From the IMG/VR virus record IMGVR_UViG_2531839666_000025, positions 1 to 4,389 of that record: DNA of 4,389 nt; one strand, 5' to 3'. A model generated the notes under the pieces. That model saw only the letters and a list, made by a program, of their open reading frames with translations, searched no databases and was not told the origin of the DNA. The DNA is from a virus. Its lineage: Duplodnaviria; Heunggongvirae; Uroviricota; Caudoviricetes. The first letter of the stretch is position 1. Every line of letters begins with the position of its first letter. This document shows, in pieces, positions 1 to 4,389 of the stretch. A program made the translations under genes and the position numbers.

Positions 1-673
1 TTATTCCTGTGCCCAGCCAACCCTGTATGCCAGGATCTCATCCGCACTGCTCAGCGATTCCAGGTCCTTCTTCATGGTGCGCTGGCGAATGTGGATTTCC
101 ATCCCTTTAGTGAACATCGCCTGCTCTGCCGCTTCACTCAGCGCAATAAGCTCTTCTGCTGTCACCGGCACATCATTGTTTTCCGCATCCGTCCAGAAAA
201 ACGCCTCCGGCAGTTTCCCCGCTTTCGCTGCCGCCACCGACGGCTCAAGACGCGTCTGCGTTGACTTCCCGTAGTCCCATTTACGCCCATTGTGCTCAAA
301 CGTGTAGTTCGCCGCTTCCATCTCATTACGCCAGGCGTTAATTTCATCGCCCTTCATCCCGCGCGCTTTCTCCGCGGTCAGCAGGTCCGTGATTTTCTCC
401 CCGTCAAAAACCCCAGCGCCCCGAGATGTCAGCTTTGCGGTTTTCTTCCGTATCCGCCACCTCCACCACACTCTGGCCCACTGGCCACAGAACTGACGCC
501 ACCCTGCCGATGCCGGTAATGACTCCGGCACTGTTATAAACCACCTTCAGCGTCTCTGCTGAAAATAACGACTGACACTCATACCAGTCCTGACCATCCT
601 CTGATTTCAGGTACATCGCACCCGGCACATCCGGATTTTCCGGCGTGTATTGTCTGAAATTCTTTATGTGCAT
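1..673 (-). pseudogene. tfa: Tail fibre assembly protein (P2 gpG / Tfa chaperone family), reading frame broken by a 1-nt indel; intact equivalent would be about 223 aa
   Basis: Two overlapping minus-strand ORFs (673..404, 89 aa; 531..1, 176 aa) together resemble one Tfa. The first matches my recollection of the P2 gpG N-terminal region (SEDGQDWYE...KVVYNSAG...SVVEVADTEENRKADISGRWGF). The second matches the conserved C-terminal region of the tfa at 2905..3495 (INAWRNEME...RLEP...FFWTDAENNDV...). ATG at 673 is preceded by GGGAGGA with an 8-nt spacer; stop at 1..3. Confidence 0.75.
406..414 (-). other. Homopolymer tract (plus CCCC/AAAAA, minus TTTTTGGGG) where the tfa-1 frame switches
   Basis: Minus strand reads TGG GGT TTT TGA (W G F stop) in the upstream frame and GTT TTT GAC GGG GAG AAA (V F D G E K) in the downstream frame. 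Removing one T from the T5 run gives a continuous ...GRWGFDGEKITDLL... matching P2 gpG ...GKWMFKDGAVV... as I recall it. Confidence 0.7.
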
Positions 674-714
674 CTGTAAGTCCTCCCGGTTACATATCTG
701 ACAGGTGATGCGCT

Positions 715-2448
715 TTATAACGAAAAATACTCACGCCCCGGCGCTCCTGACGACACATACTCACCAACACCAACGGTGCGCCAGTGAGAGCCATCAAACG
801 TCATCTGCAGCGGCCTGTAGTAAATCGTTGTAACACGGCTGACGCCGCCCTGAGTGTTCCCCGAAAGCCCTGTAATGACTGAACCATCAGCCAGATTAAC
901 TGACCAGCCATGGTCCCCCTCCTGCAACTCATACGTTACCGGATTCCCCAGCCTGAAGCCCATGACACGACTCTTCCCGTCATCTCCTGATGCCCCCGGC
1001 GGCCCCATCGGCCCGGTTTCTCCACGCTCACCTCTGGGACCGGGGTCGCCTTTCTCCCCTTTCGGTCCCTGCGCTCCCCGCGGACCAGCGGGGCCTGTTG
1101 CTCCCGTTTCACCTTTCGGACCCTGTGCTCCGGGGTCGCCTTTCTCTCCTTTCGGACCGGGAACACCACCTCCTGCTGCAGCCTCTTCTGCCTTTGTTTT
1201 CGCTTCATTTGCCACATCCATTGCCGCCTTCACGGCCTTCGGCGTGGCTGCCTTTGTTTCGTCATTACTGCCAGTATCACTGCTTAACTGCACCACACCT
1301 TTCTGCGTCGTGCTGGCATCCCGCTGGCTGACCGTATCCGGTTTGTTTTTTGTGCTGTAATCCACCCGCCAGTGGAAATACTGTGTGTCGCCGTAAACCG
1401 TACAGGTACAGACCGTGCCATTAATAAACCCCGTTGCACCGTATTCGCCAATGGTGACCCGGACTATGGCAGCCTCATACGTCCCCATCACCTCAATGAC
1501 ACAGCCACCCAGATTGAGTTTTCCCGGTCCGACATCCGTGATGACTTTATTCATTGACGCAGGCAGTGATGCCTTCATCATCCAGTAAGGCTGGTCAAAT
1601 GCCCCTTTTTCTTTCAGCCAGGCGACAAACTCGCTCGTGGTCCATTCACCGGCCCCCGTATGAATGTCCCGCCCGTATACTCTGGCTGCTCCCACGGTGT
1701 TCAGAAACTTCACCTTATCCGGGATATCGTCACCGTTTTTCGCTTTCTCCAGGCATCCGTCCGCTTTGTCCATTGCCGCTTTCACCGCTTTCGGGGTGGC
1801 TGCCTTCGTTTCATCATCACTGTCCGTTGCGCTGCTTAACTGCACAATTCCCTTCTGTGCCGTCGTCGCATCCGGTCCTCCCGGCTCGCCTTTTTCGCCC
1901 TTCTCTCCCCGTTCACCTTTCACACCCTGAAGCCCCTGTGGTCCTGTCTCACCACGCTCACCCTTTGGCCCCCGCTCGCCGGTATCGCCTTTTGGCCCGG
2001 GAATACCCTGCGGCCCGGTGTCCCCCTTATCCCCCTTCGGTCCCCGCGCATTCTCTGCCCGTTTTTTTGCCTCCTCCGCACTGGCTGCGGACGCTTCCGC
2101 ACGTTTCAGGATTTCCGCTGCCACCGCTTCCAGCTCTGCAAGGGCTTTCGGGTAATACTGTGCGTCTTCCAGGTCCATCAGAAATTTATTCAGCGTTCCC
2201 GGTGCAGAATCCGCCTTCACCAGAATGTCACCCACATATGACGGCGCGTACCCTTCCGTGTTCAGCGTCACCCGGTACAACCCCGGCTCAACATCCATAC
2301 TGTAACTGCCGGTTTCCCCCGGCTGACCATACGCCACCGTGGTGACAATCACCGTCTCCGTTGTGCGGCGCGCTTTCAGCTCTATCGTGCATCCCGGTAC
2401 CGCTTTTCCCGTACCATCCTTCAGCACACCCGATATTCTGACTGTCAT
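715..2448 (-). CDS. stf: Side tail fibre protein, 577 aa: lambda Stf-like N-terminal domain, two collagen-like Gly-X-Y tracts, two tail-fibre repeat motifs, a central globular domain and a short C-terminal domain
   Basis: N-terminus [28 protein letters not shown] resembles lambda Stf [28 protein letters not shown] (from memory). Uninterrupted Gly-X-Y at aa 136-192 and 428-491. Motif [30 protein letters not shown] occurs twice (aa 196-228, 380-412). ATG at 2448..2446 preceded by GGGGGA; TAA at 717..715. Confidence 0.9.
976..1167 (-). repeat. Collagen-like Gly-X-Y coding tract 2 (about 21 triplets, stf aa 428-491)
   Basis: Translation [64 protein letters not shown] with Gly at every third position. 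The proline-rich plus-strand ORFs here are its antisense shadow. Confidence 0.9.
1213..1311 (-). repeat. Tail-fibre repeat motif, copy 2 (stf aa 380-412), a diverged direct repeat of 1765..1863
   Basis: [33 protein letters not shown]. At DNA level, ...ccattgccgccttcacggccttcggcgtggctgcctttgtttc... here parallels ...ccattgccgctttcaccgctttcggggtggctgccttcgtttc... in copy 1. Confidence 0.85.
1765..1863 (-). repeat. Tail-fibre repeat motif, copy 1 (stf aa 196-228)
   Basis: [33 protein letters not shown]; same motif as in lambda Stf ([28 protein letters not shown], from memory). Confidence 0.85.
1873..2043 (-). repeat. Collagen-like Gly-X-Y coding tract 1 (about 19 triplets, stf aa 136-192)
   Basis: Translation [57 protein letters not shown] with Gly at every third position. 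Confidence 0.9.
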
Positions 2449-2453
2449 GGATT

Positions 2454-2459
2454 TCCCCC
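2454..2459 (-). promoter_or_regulatory. Probable Shine-Dalgarno sequence of stf
   Basis: Minus strand GGGGGA followed by AATCC then ATG (2448). Confidence 0.5.
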
Positions 2460-2461
2460 AT

Positions 2462-2496
2462 AAAAAAACCGCAGTACCGGTTTCCCGGCCTGCGGT
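2462..2496 (-). terminator. Intrinsic (rho-independent) terminator, probable 3' end of the hok-like transcript
   Basis: Minus strand ACCGCAG-GCCGG-GAAA-CCGGuA-CUGCGGU followed by UUUUUUU: outer 7-bp stem, inner 4-bp CCGG/CCGG stem, GAAA tetraloop, then a T7 run. The T-tract ends 13 nt before the stf ATG. Confidence 0.7.
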
Positions 2497-2559
2497 AAAA
2501 TTTGTGGTTTGTTGGTGTTAAAACGGTGCCATCCGGCTGACCACCCTCAGCAACCGGTC

Positions 2560-2582
2560 GGCGGGGGATATTCTCCCCCGCC
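2560..2582. repeat. Perfect 9-bp GC-rich inverted repeat with a 5-nt loop, in the 3' untranslated region of the hok-like gene
   Basis: Plus strand GGCGGGGGA-TATTC-TCCCCCGCC (2560-2568 pairs with 2574-2582). No adjacent T-run on either strand, so it is more likely a structural or stability element than a terminator. Confidence 0.5.
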
Positions 2583-2590
2583 ACGGTTTC

Positions 2591-2731
2591 TTACTGCTTA
2601 CACTGTAAGAACGCCGCAATCTCCGCGCCCGCTATCCGGAACCGGAACTCGCACAGTGAACTGTGGGTGATCCAGATAATGAGCACTACCGTGATACAAA
2701 TCACGGTGGTTTTTAACGGTTTTTGCGACAT
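2591..2731 (-). CDS. hok: Hok/Gef-family type I toxin, 46 aa (small single-pass membrane peptide)
   Basis: Hand translation of the minus strand gives MSQKPLKTTVICITVVLIIWITHSSLCEFRFRIAGAEIAAFLQCKQ. It has a hydrophobic helix (TVICITVVLIIWIT) followed by the Hok hallmark SLCE..R.....E(I/V)AAF..(C/Y)K; compare R1 Hok ...[28 protein letters not shown], recalled from memory. ATG at 2731..2729 preceded by AAGGAG with a 9-nt spacer; TAA at 2593..2591. Not in the supplied ORF track. Confidence 0.8.
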   Translation of the reverse strand: MSQKPLKTTVICITVVLIIWITHSSLCEFRFRIAGAEIAAFLQCKQ

Positions 2732-2740
2732 AAACGCTTG

Positions 2741-2746
2741 CTCCTT
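2741..2746 (-). promoter_or_regulatory. Shine-Dalgarno sequence of hok (AAGGAG) with an adjacent anti-SD
   Basis: Minus strand CCUCUCC-GUAAAA-GGAG-CAAGCGUUU-AUG. The CUCC immediately upstream can pair with GGAG (plus-strand palindrome ctcc-ttttac-ggag, 2741..2754). Confidence 0.6.
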
Positions 2747-2876
2747 TTACGGAGAGGCGCTAACCTTTCACTTGCTTAGGATGAATGGTCAGGCCTCGGG
2801 TTAAACATGAATGTTTGTCCGGGGCCTTTTCACATCCGGCCTTCAGGTGTTCCCTCCGGCCATCAGCCAAAGGCAC

Positions 2877-2898
2877 CCGTGCATAATGTACGGTTTTT
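2877..2898 (+). terminator. Candidate plus-strand intrinsic terminator, possibly the 3' end of an antisense (Sok-like) RNA; speculative
   Basis: Plus strand CCGUGCA-UAA-UGUACGG (7-bp stem with one G-U pair, 3-nt loop) followed by UUUUUAUU. It lies antisense to the predicted hok leader, immediately beyond the tfa-2 stop. No convincing promoter found upstream. Confidence 0.3.
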
Positions 2899-2904
2899 AT
2901 TCTG

Positions 2905-3495
2905 TTACGTAAATACCGGCTCCTCACTCCCCCAGCCGGGCTGATAGCACAGTACATCACGGTATCGCGTCATCCCCGCAATCTCCTGTTTCATCTGTCG
3001 CTGTCTTTCGTGGATCCTGAAACCGTGCGCCACCATCGCCTGTTTCATGGCAACACCCAGCGCCTTCAGTTCATCAGCGTCTACCGCCACATCATGATTA
3101 TCCGCATCTGTCCAGAAAAAACGTTCCGGTAAATGTTCTGTCACTGCAAGCACGGGCTCCAGACGGCTCAGTGAGCGCTTACCTGCATCCCAGCGTCGCC
3201 CCTGCCATTCAAACACAATTTCTTTATTTTCTTCCTCATTTCTCCAGATGTTAATCCTGTCGCATGCCTTCTCTTTTTCCTTTTCCAGCATATCCTGACT
3301 TTCACGCCACGGTGTCACCGCTCCATACTGACCACCGGCAATGGCGGCAAACAGTTCACGCCATATCACATCGGGATCATGCGGCATCACAACGATATCC
3401 ATCCAGCACTCCCCCGACGGTAACTTCATTTCAGCATGAATGTTTCCGCTTTCGTCATACCTCGCATGACGGATTTCTGTAACGATCTCCGGCAC
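2905..3495 (-). CDS. tfa: Tail fibre assembly protein (Tfa chaperone family), 196 aa, apparently intact
   Basis: C-terminal two-thirds (DRINIWRNEEE...RLEPVLAVTEHLPERFFWTDADNHDVAVDADELKALG...) is paralogous to tfa-1; the N-terminal about 85 aa differs. GTG start at 3495..3493, 9 nt after the upstream stop, preceded by AAGGGGGG; TAA at 2907..2905. Confidence 0.88.
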   Translation of the reverse strand: MPEIVTEIRHARYDESGNIHAEMKLPSGECWMDIVVMPHDPDVIWRELFAAIAGGQYGAVTPWRESQDMLEKEKEKACDRINIWRNEEENKEIVFEWQGRRWDAGKRSLSRLEPVLAVTEHLPERFFWTDADNHDVAVDADELKALGVAMKQAMVAHGFRIHERQRQMKQEIAGMTRYRDVLCYQPGWGSEEPVFT

Positions 3496-3504
3496 AATCC
3501 CCCC

Positions 3505-4389
3505 TTAAAGCACATGAACCTTCTCATTTCCTGCCCGGAATAACGTGCCACCGTTACATAGAACGCTGATCGTCACGCGACAGTTATAATTCAGGGGGTT
3601 ATGAAAGGCGCGCACGTAACGATACCGGACATAAATCCGGTTGCGGTTTCCCCTCCCCTTTGCCGGAAGCGTGAATCTGTAAATCCAGTCATAATTTTCC
3701 CACACCTTATGCTTCAAATTCCCGGGCCCCCATTCTCCTGACGACCAGACAGTGGCAATTCCACCATCTGCACTATCAGTGCCGACACTGACTTCCCACC
3801 AGGCAGAAACAAGACCAGGATTGCCCTCAGCTCTGAAGGCTATCTTCATGTTAACATCAAAAAAACGATCGAAGTTTTCCCCGTCAACATTCAGAAAAGG
3901 GATCCATTCGTTATCTCTCTCCTTTACACCATCCCGTGAGCTGACACCACTGAACACAACTTTATTGATTTCAAACAGGGAGCGGTAATAAACATCGCCA
4001 AGAATATTACCGGCATCCACTGTTCCTTTAACGACGCAGTTTTCTGCAATGGTCACGTTATTCAGCGTGCCCGAGTTCGCACTGATATGTCCGCTGATGT
4101 CCGCATTACGGGCCGTCAGCCTGCCGTCCGGCGTCAGGGAGAACGTCGGGGGATTGCCGGACGAGGTGATGCTCACCGCAAACAACCGCTTCAGGAACAC
4201 ATCGTTCATGAACAGCTGATTCCCCTGCGCCACAAACAGCGGCGTGGTGTTGCCGTTCTCCGGGTTAATCATCGCGATACGGTCCGCCTGCAGCAGTATA
4301 TTGCTCAGGGGCTGGCCATCAGCATCCTCAATCCCCGCACCTATACCGGCAACATACGGAATGCCGTTTTTTGTTTCTGCACCTTCAGC
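3505..4389 (-). CDS. J: Host specificity / central tail fibre protein (lambda gpJ-like), C-terminal 294 codons; N-terminus lies beyond the window
   Basis: The frame is open from the window edge ([17 protein letters not shown]...) through the track ORF to TAA at 3507..3505. The segment [22 protein letters not shown]...[38 protein letters not shown] matches my recollection of lambda J ([18 protein letters not shown]...[41 protein letters not shown]). The last about 190 aa do not resemble the lambda J C-terminus. Confidence 0.8.

Follow-up and report, generated by a model that had tools for sequence, protein, structure and literature searches.

A one-base frameshift in the tfa chaperone gene of a lambdoid prophage, from miscall or mutation

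Just downstream of a side tail fibre gene (stf), a 4,389-nucleotide stretch of viral DNA (positions 1 to 4,389 of the IMG/VR record IMGVR_UViG_2531839666_000025; here called the window) carries two overlapping reading frames, each covering part of a Tfa-like protein. The locus could thus hold two short genes or one gene in two pieces, and in the latter case the break could lie in the DNA or only in the assembled sequence. A preliminary description of the window regarded the tfa gene as split by one extra base in a run of five T residues (T5). Our reading of the ORFs and the alignments with orthologues bear this out. Both ORFs derive from a single ancestral gene; which run carries the indel, that no relative examined shares it, and which domains the gene encodes are likewise established. 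In the following, we examine how this gene is organized, where else the T5 allele occurs, and how the extra base may have arisen.

Organization of the tfa locus

All genes of the window lie on the minus strand. The first encodes the C-terminal portion of J, the tail tip protein (3505..4389; Pfam Phage_Tail_Tip), and is directly followed downstream by an intact gene for a second DUF4376 protein of 196 amino acids (2905..3495; Pfam), which is on record in exactly this form in 268 blocks. An intact hok/gef toxin ORF of 46 amino acids (2591..2731) is located between the J module and stf. The latter encodes an intact side tail fibre of 577 amino acids (715..2448) with a Pfam phage_tail_N domain and with Phage_fiber_2 and Collagen repeats, and the broken tfa gene (1..673) lies just downstream on the same strand. 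A gap of 41 nt, which contains a Shine-Dalgarno sequence, separates the stf stop codon (715..717) from the tfa start codon (ATG 673), and the fibre is the presumed client of the tfa chaperone. The stf product contains two collagen-like Gly-X-Y blocks and a duplicated segment of about 35 amino acids (...TTQKG(I/V)VQLSS...). Its C-terminal tip (window about 820..990) carries frame-preserving indels and shows the greatest variability among relatives.

The C-terminal region of J and the gene for the 196-amino-acid protein directly after it form one module (2905..4050), carried by many draft assemblies (the 268 blocks mentioned above). Complete RefSeq E. coli genomes and phage records did not cover this module together with the rest of the window, the best coverage being 74% in both. 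The module looks like an alternative receptor-binding end of J that comes with a Tfa-like helper of its own.

At about 2461..2496, directly preceding the stf ribosome-binding site, the minus strand holds a strong hairpin followed by seven U residues (ACCGCAGGCCGG-GAAA-CCGGUACUGCGGU UUUUUUU; -25.6 kcal/mol, z = -3.6). It resembles an intrinsic terminator at which the hok transcript would probably end; a simple terminator scan missed it. A promoter and terminator scan revealed nothing of relevance to the T5 site. Rfam at gathering thresholds returned no family anywhere in the window, the hok/gef region included, and NCBIfam profiles gave no matches.

The upstream part of tfa, ORF A, encodes 89 amino acids (404..673, minus strand) with a Tfa-like N-terminal domain of the fibre-binding type. 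It starts at ATG 673 and ends with ...ADISGRWGF at a premature TGA (404..406). The preliminary description credited this product with a good ribosome-binding site, and a GGAGG motif is indeed present at 682..686, 8 nt upstream of the start codon. The stop codon is created by the T5 run at 406..410, the site of the extra base, which is preceded on the gene strand by four G residues (411..414), giving G4T5. The plus strand therefore reads A5 (406..410) and then C4 (411..414); the label C4A5 given to the site earlier named the right place in reversed order.

A second minus-strand frame, shifted by +1 relative to ORF A, is open from position 531 to a TAA at 1..3 (a 176-amino-acid ORF if counted from GTG 531). 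The rest of the tfa gene, with the C-terminal DUF4376 domain, lies in this frame at 1..405 (134 codons plus TAA), and its codons across the break read ...GTT TTT GAC GGG GAG.... Expression of the 176-amino-acid ORF from GTG 531 was rejected, as this codon has no Shine-Dalgarno sequence. Translation may be able to reinitiate at an in-frame ATG that lies 48 nt further on and corresponds to residue 106, close to where DUF4376 starts, though probably with low efficiency.

The two ORFs are one gene

Removal of one base from the T5 run changes the junction to ...ISGRWGFDGEKITDLL... and joins both ORFs in a protein of 223 amino acids, confirming the earlier proposal that one T less would yield a single Tfa-like protein. 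A megablast search of positions 1..720 against 5,426 complete E. coli genomes yielded near full-length matches in 134 records. Among the 40 matches listed, 39 were one base shorter than the query and annotated as a single "DUF4376 domain-containing protein"; the remaining one, H26 (NCCP 13963), reaches full length through its own insertion elsewhere and has T4 at the tfa site. The best listed RefSeq match is a CDS of 672 nt that encodes 223 amino acids (WP_203062542.1). Phages phiSTEC1589-Stx1c and 1720a-02 also possess an intact single gene, with 98.7% and 96.9% amino acid identity, respectively, to the restored protein. When the window was aligned with intact orthologues, the only indel fell exactly in the run, with T5 in the window and T4 elsewhere. 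The comparison with orthologous tfa genes suggested in the preliminary description thus gave a single difference in length, and the arrangement named there as speaking against a frameshift, two ORFs that are normally separate genes, was not what the orthologues showed: they are intact, single coding sequences for 223 amino acids.

Profile comparisons gave the same result at the protein level. The restored protein matches PHROG 11571 over positions 1-223 of 223 (E=2.9e-149), and ORF A matches positions 1-89 of the same profile. With PHROG 136, "tail fiber assembly protein", the E value was 2e-30 for ORF A and 6.9e-33 for the restored protein. The alignment with the Tfa protein gpU of phage Mu (5YVQ_B) covers residues 2-120 (E=2.3e-16) and runs across the break, where GRWGF-DGE of the restored protein stands opposite GKWMFKDGA of Mu.

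Residues 1 to about 98 of the restored protein match a Tfa-type N-domain. This part shows 55-61% identity to gpG of the P2-like Salmonella phages PSP3 and FSLSP004, 37% to gpG of P2 itself, and also matches U' of P1 and U of Mu. Residues 104-210 match Pfam DUF4376 with 66.1 bits (cut-off, 25). The Pfam family Caudo_TAP (PF02413) stayed below its gathering cut-off (20.1 versus 22.1 bits) and was matched at profile positions 2-57 only. By its profile matches, the family is thus best described as a Tfa N-domain plus DUF4376, without a clean Caudo_TAP match. The C-domains of the tfa product and of the window's other DUF4376 protein (196 amino acids) share 47% identity; the N-domain is not common to the two, which fits a modular picture.

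The frameshift is positioned at the boundary of the fibre-binding N-domain and the DUF4376 C-domain, and the 89-amino-acid product therefore corresponds to the fibre-binding domain alone. As summarized from North et al. [quoted passage not shown] In the Campylobacter CJIE1 prophage and in Alteromonas phage V22, the fibres depend for their function on DUF4376 proteins that are encoded downstream of the fibre genes (PMC7882524, PMC7289586). By analogy, the window's tfa would encode a two-domain chaperone whose Tfa/gpU/gpG-type N-domain binds the fibre tip and whose DUF4376 domain drives fibre multimerisation. As the sequence is written, the ribosome-binding site would yield the N-domain of 89 amino acids alone, with DUF4376 out of frame.

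The window gene agrees with known Tfa chaperones (Mu gpU, PDB 5YVQ; P2 gpG; P1 U'; lambda Tfa) in its place directly downstream of a fibre gene, in its homologous N-domain and in a two-domain layout with a C-terminal DUF4376 domain. It differs from them in its out-of-frame C-domain and sub-threshold Caudo_TAP score. The H-fibre chaperone of Campylobacter CJIE1 and gp27 of Alteromonas V22 resemble it in having a C-terminal DUF4376 domain and in lying downstream of a receptor-binding fibre gene. In contrast, their N-domains and hosts are different, and the role in fibre function is experimental for these two proteins and deduced from sequence for the window's tfa.

Distribution of the T5 allele and a second indel in J

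We analyzed whether the T5 run exists elsewhere. All 35 fetched related loci that carry the site have G4T4, and T4 is also found in all 40 of the listed E. coli genome matches. At 149 homologous places in 65 complete E. coli genomes, an 81-mer of the window spanning the T5 site was never matched exactly, and the 30 listed matches to it were 80 nt long in the record without exception. In IMG/VR, a 27-mer with T5 gave no matches and the corresponding 26-mer with T4 gave 26. The T5 27-mer was also absent from the JGI metagenomes. A collection of genome contigs gave no matches with T5, nor did it with the T4 control, and so carries no information on the allele. The products of 89 and 176 amino acids were absent from the record, covering 153 billion gene positions; the exact products of the J fragment (255 amino acids) and of stf (577 amino acids) were absent from it as well. 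Since every relative checked has T4, the shift is neither a conserved recoding signal, nor a natural two-gene arrangement, nor a phase-variable tract. For the same reason, a slippage-prone site, which the preliminary description had listed among the possible causes, is effectively excluded as a conserved feature.

A private lesion in the same tfa gene is found in the RefSeq complete genome NCCP 13963 (NZ_CM167683.1), with an additional A of its own at window position 490-492. Its match has the same length as the query because of this base, and PGAP annotates the gene as frameshifted. Independent single-base frameshifts, or miscalls, thus occur in this gene in at least two assemblies, the window and NCCP 13963. 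Across 12 sequences spanning 1..2898, singleton 1-nt indels were observed only in these two, both times in tfa.

The window also contains a second homopolymer indel, which the preliminary description did not mention. At 4374..4376, within gpJ on the minus strand, the plus strand has T3, and 24 of 26 relatives have T4. The indel shifts the gpJ frame, so that the part of J at 3505..4389 no longer agrees with the frame in which J is read upstream. This upstream reading continues across the site in relatives; in the window the upstream frame, placed by homology as only 13 nt of J precede the indel, runs for 15 residues and then meets a stop. Among the ten close relatives, i.e., loci with an identical 196-amino-acid neighbour, J is one intact ORF in nine. 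The tenth (GCA_000752455.1, CCVO01000099.1) is an assembly rich in frameshifts; its J is in two parts and its longer, rearranged stf region is split into many short ORFs, as might be expected of poor assembly quality or of a repeat that was misassembled. None of 292 homologous places in 135 complete E. coli genomes contained an exact match to the window's 81-mer at the J indel. A similar J, one nucleotide short and broken at the same spot, was found solely in an IMG/VR contig (locus L014).

Comparison with the closest of these ten loci (L008, 98.8%) revealed 52 substitutions and only two gaps, namely the T5 run and the missing base at 4374..4376. Measured against 37 related loci, the window has a single private substitution, a synonymous one at position 721. 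None of the 37 shares the exact form of either of the two single-base homopolymer indels.

Origin and meaning of the extra base

The change would be a private expansion by one base, T4 to T5, at the domain boundary of tfa in one sequence. We consider it about an even chance that the extra T is a homopolymer-length miscall in the assembly and that the real gene is intact, and lean slightly towards this reading over mutation. The change in length is confined to a homopolymer and to one assembly. According to the megablast of complete E. coli genomes, a single genome can hold the region in up to 7 places, and several near-identical copies of a prophage module favour consensus or polishing errors, which makes a miscall likelier. 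Both indels disrupt tail genes, tfa and gpJ respectively, which the closest relatives have in intact form. Furthermore, the variants specific to the window are mostly indels with few substitutions, an excess that rests on very few events, given that the window was picked for having a frameshift. As in known assembly homopolymer errors, runs are changed by plus or minus one base, twice within 4.4 kb of a multi-copy prophage, and substitutions are almost absent. However, the runs in the window are only 3-5 nt long, shorter than most error-prone tracts. Nanopore errors typically affect tracts longer than 4-5 bases, and runs of this length are seldom miscalled in Illumina assemblies. Genuine frameshifts are, moreover, common in tail genes of lambdoid prophages, the tfa of NCCP 13963 being one example, and the similarly broken J of the IMG/VR contig could mean that the second indel site is a real mutational hotspot.

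Somewhat less probable, with a chance a little below even, is a genuine and very recent pseudogenisation. Replication slippage would have turned T4 into T5 in a decaying prophage in which J was broken by a second slippage. The remaining product, the N-domain of 89 amino acids, might still bind the fibre tip; with the multimerisation domain missing, side tail fibres would not be assembled. Both lesions are single-base homopolymer changes, as is usual for indels that arise spontaneously. That one module contains two broken tail genes is in line with relaxed selection in a defective prophage, and independent frameshifts are seen elsewhere, in the same gene (NCCP 13963) and at the same J site (the IMG/VR contig). 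Also, the rest of the window is clean with respect to substitutions, and stf, hok and the gene for the 196-amino-acid protein are intact, which does not suggest a generally noisy assembly. On the other hand, two frame-breaking indels face only one private substitution, whereas spontaneous indels in E. coli are about ten-fold rarer than substitutions. The absence of the T5 allele from every other collection searched also argues against mutation.

A precedent for such a lesion exists in laboratory lambda PaPa, in which, compared with Ur-lambda, a single-base frameshift in stf abolishes the side fibres. As in the window, the lesion is of a single base and strikes a lambdoid phage in its side-tail-fibre module. 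In the window, though, the chaperone is hit instead of the fibre, and the allele is a singleton known from an assembly only. J is also broken, which, unlike loss of stf, would be lethal to the phage.

If the T5 run is real, the sequence that it creates could also be read through, a possibility we regard as improbable. In the frame of the 89-amino-acid ORF, the codons are UGG GGU UUU UGA C, and the shift needed to enter the DUF4376 frame is +1. The site GGGG-U-UUU-UGA-C would then act as a prfB-like stop at which +1 slippage remakes wild-type Tfa at a few percent, giving a leaky hypomorph. As in prfB (RF2), a pyrimidine-UU-U run overlaps UGA-C, here with the slippery codon UUU, a G-rich tract lies just upstream, the frame has to change by +1, and the new frame opens with GAC. 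In E. coli, prfB has CUU UGA C; the UUU variant, TTTTTGA, occurs in 21 genomes, and a C after UGA weakens termination (PMC12421855). By analogy, with the weak UGA-C stop in the A site, tRNA-Phe would slip from its UUU codon to the overlapping UUU and pair there, and decoding would resume at GAC. The product of such a slip would be exactly the wild-type protein of 223 amino acids (...W-G-F-D-G-E...), and tfa would be hypomorphic rather than null.

Several features speak against such leakiness. Counted from UUU, the two upstream GGGG tracts lie at distances of 1 nt and 9 nt instead of 3 nt, and frameshifting is reduced when any part of the prfB motif is altered (PMC12421855). The local RNA fold showed no stable or stimulatory structure (z = -0.46). 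Unlike the prfB signal, the site is conserved in no orthologue and arises only from the private extra T; the orthologues are in frame with T4 (T5 in none of 35 related loci), so the site cannot be a selected signal. Recoding here can only be, at most, an accidental leakiness of a private allele and no programmed feature. Two other routes were considered and rejected. A -1 frameshift on G_GGU_UUU would enter the wrong frame (L-T-G...), and transcriptional slippage needs a run longer than 5 nt.

It is highly improbable that the ORFs normally exist as two genes or that the T run is a phase-variable switch: some PHROG families comprise the N-domain only (about 96 amino acids) or the C-terminal end only (70 amino acids) and the break coincides with a module boundary, but the close orthologues are all single 223-amino-acid ORFs, and a tract that has four T residues in all relatives and five only in the window is too short for contingency.

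The T5 site is an ordinary one-base frameshift, caused by a sequencing error or a recent inactivating mutation, in a gene of a known kind, and no new biological feature. It opens no new biological question, and the accidental prfB-like context is mildly interesting at most; the value of the finding lies in annotation and quality control. In annotation, the locus should appear as a single, frameshifted tfa (DUF4376) gene instead of two genes, and it should be flagged together with the frameshift in J, 4 kb away. Should both lesions be errors, they are a warning of homopolymer problems in repeated prophage regions of the assembly. If the leaky reading were true, this would be a natural frameshift mutation that is largely self-suppressing through the very sequence it creates. 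If both lesions are real, the prophage would have no functional tail tip or side fibres and would be defective, which would bear on the spread of its cargo.
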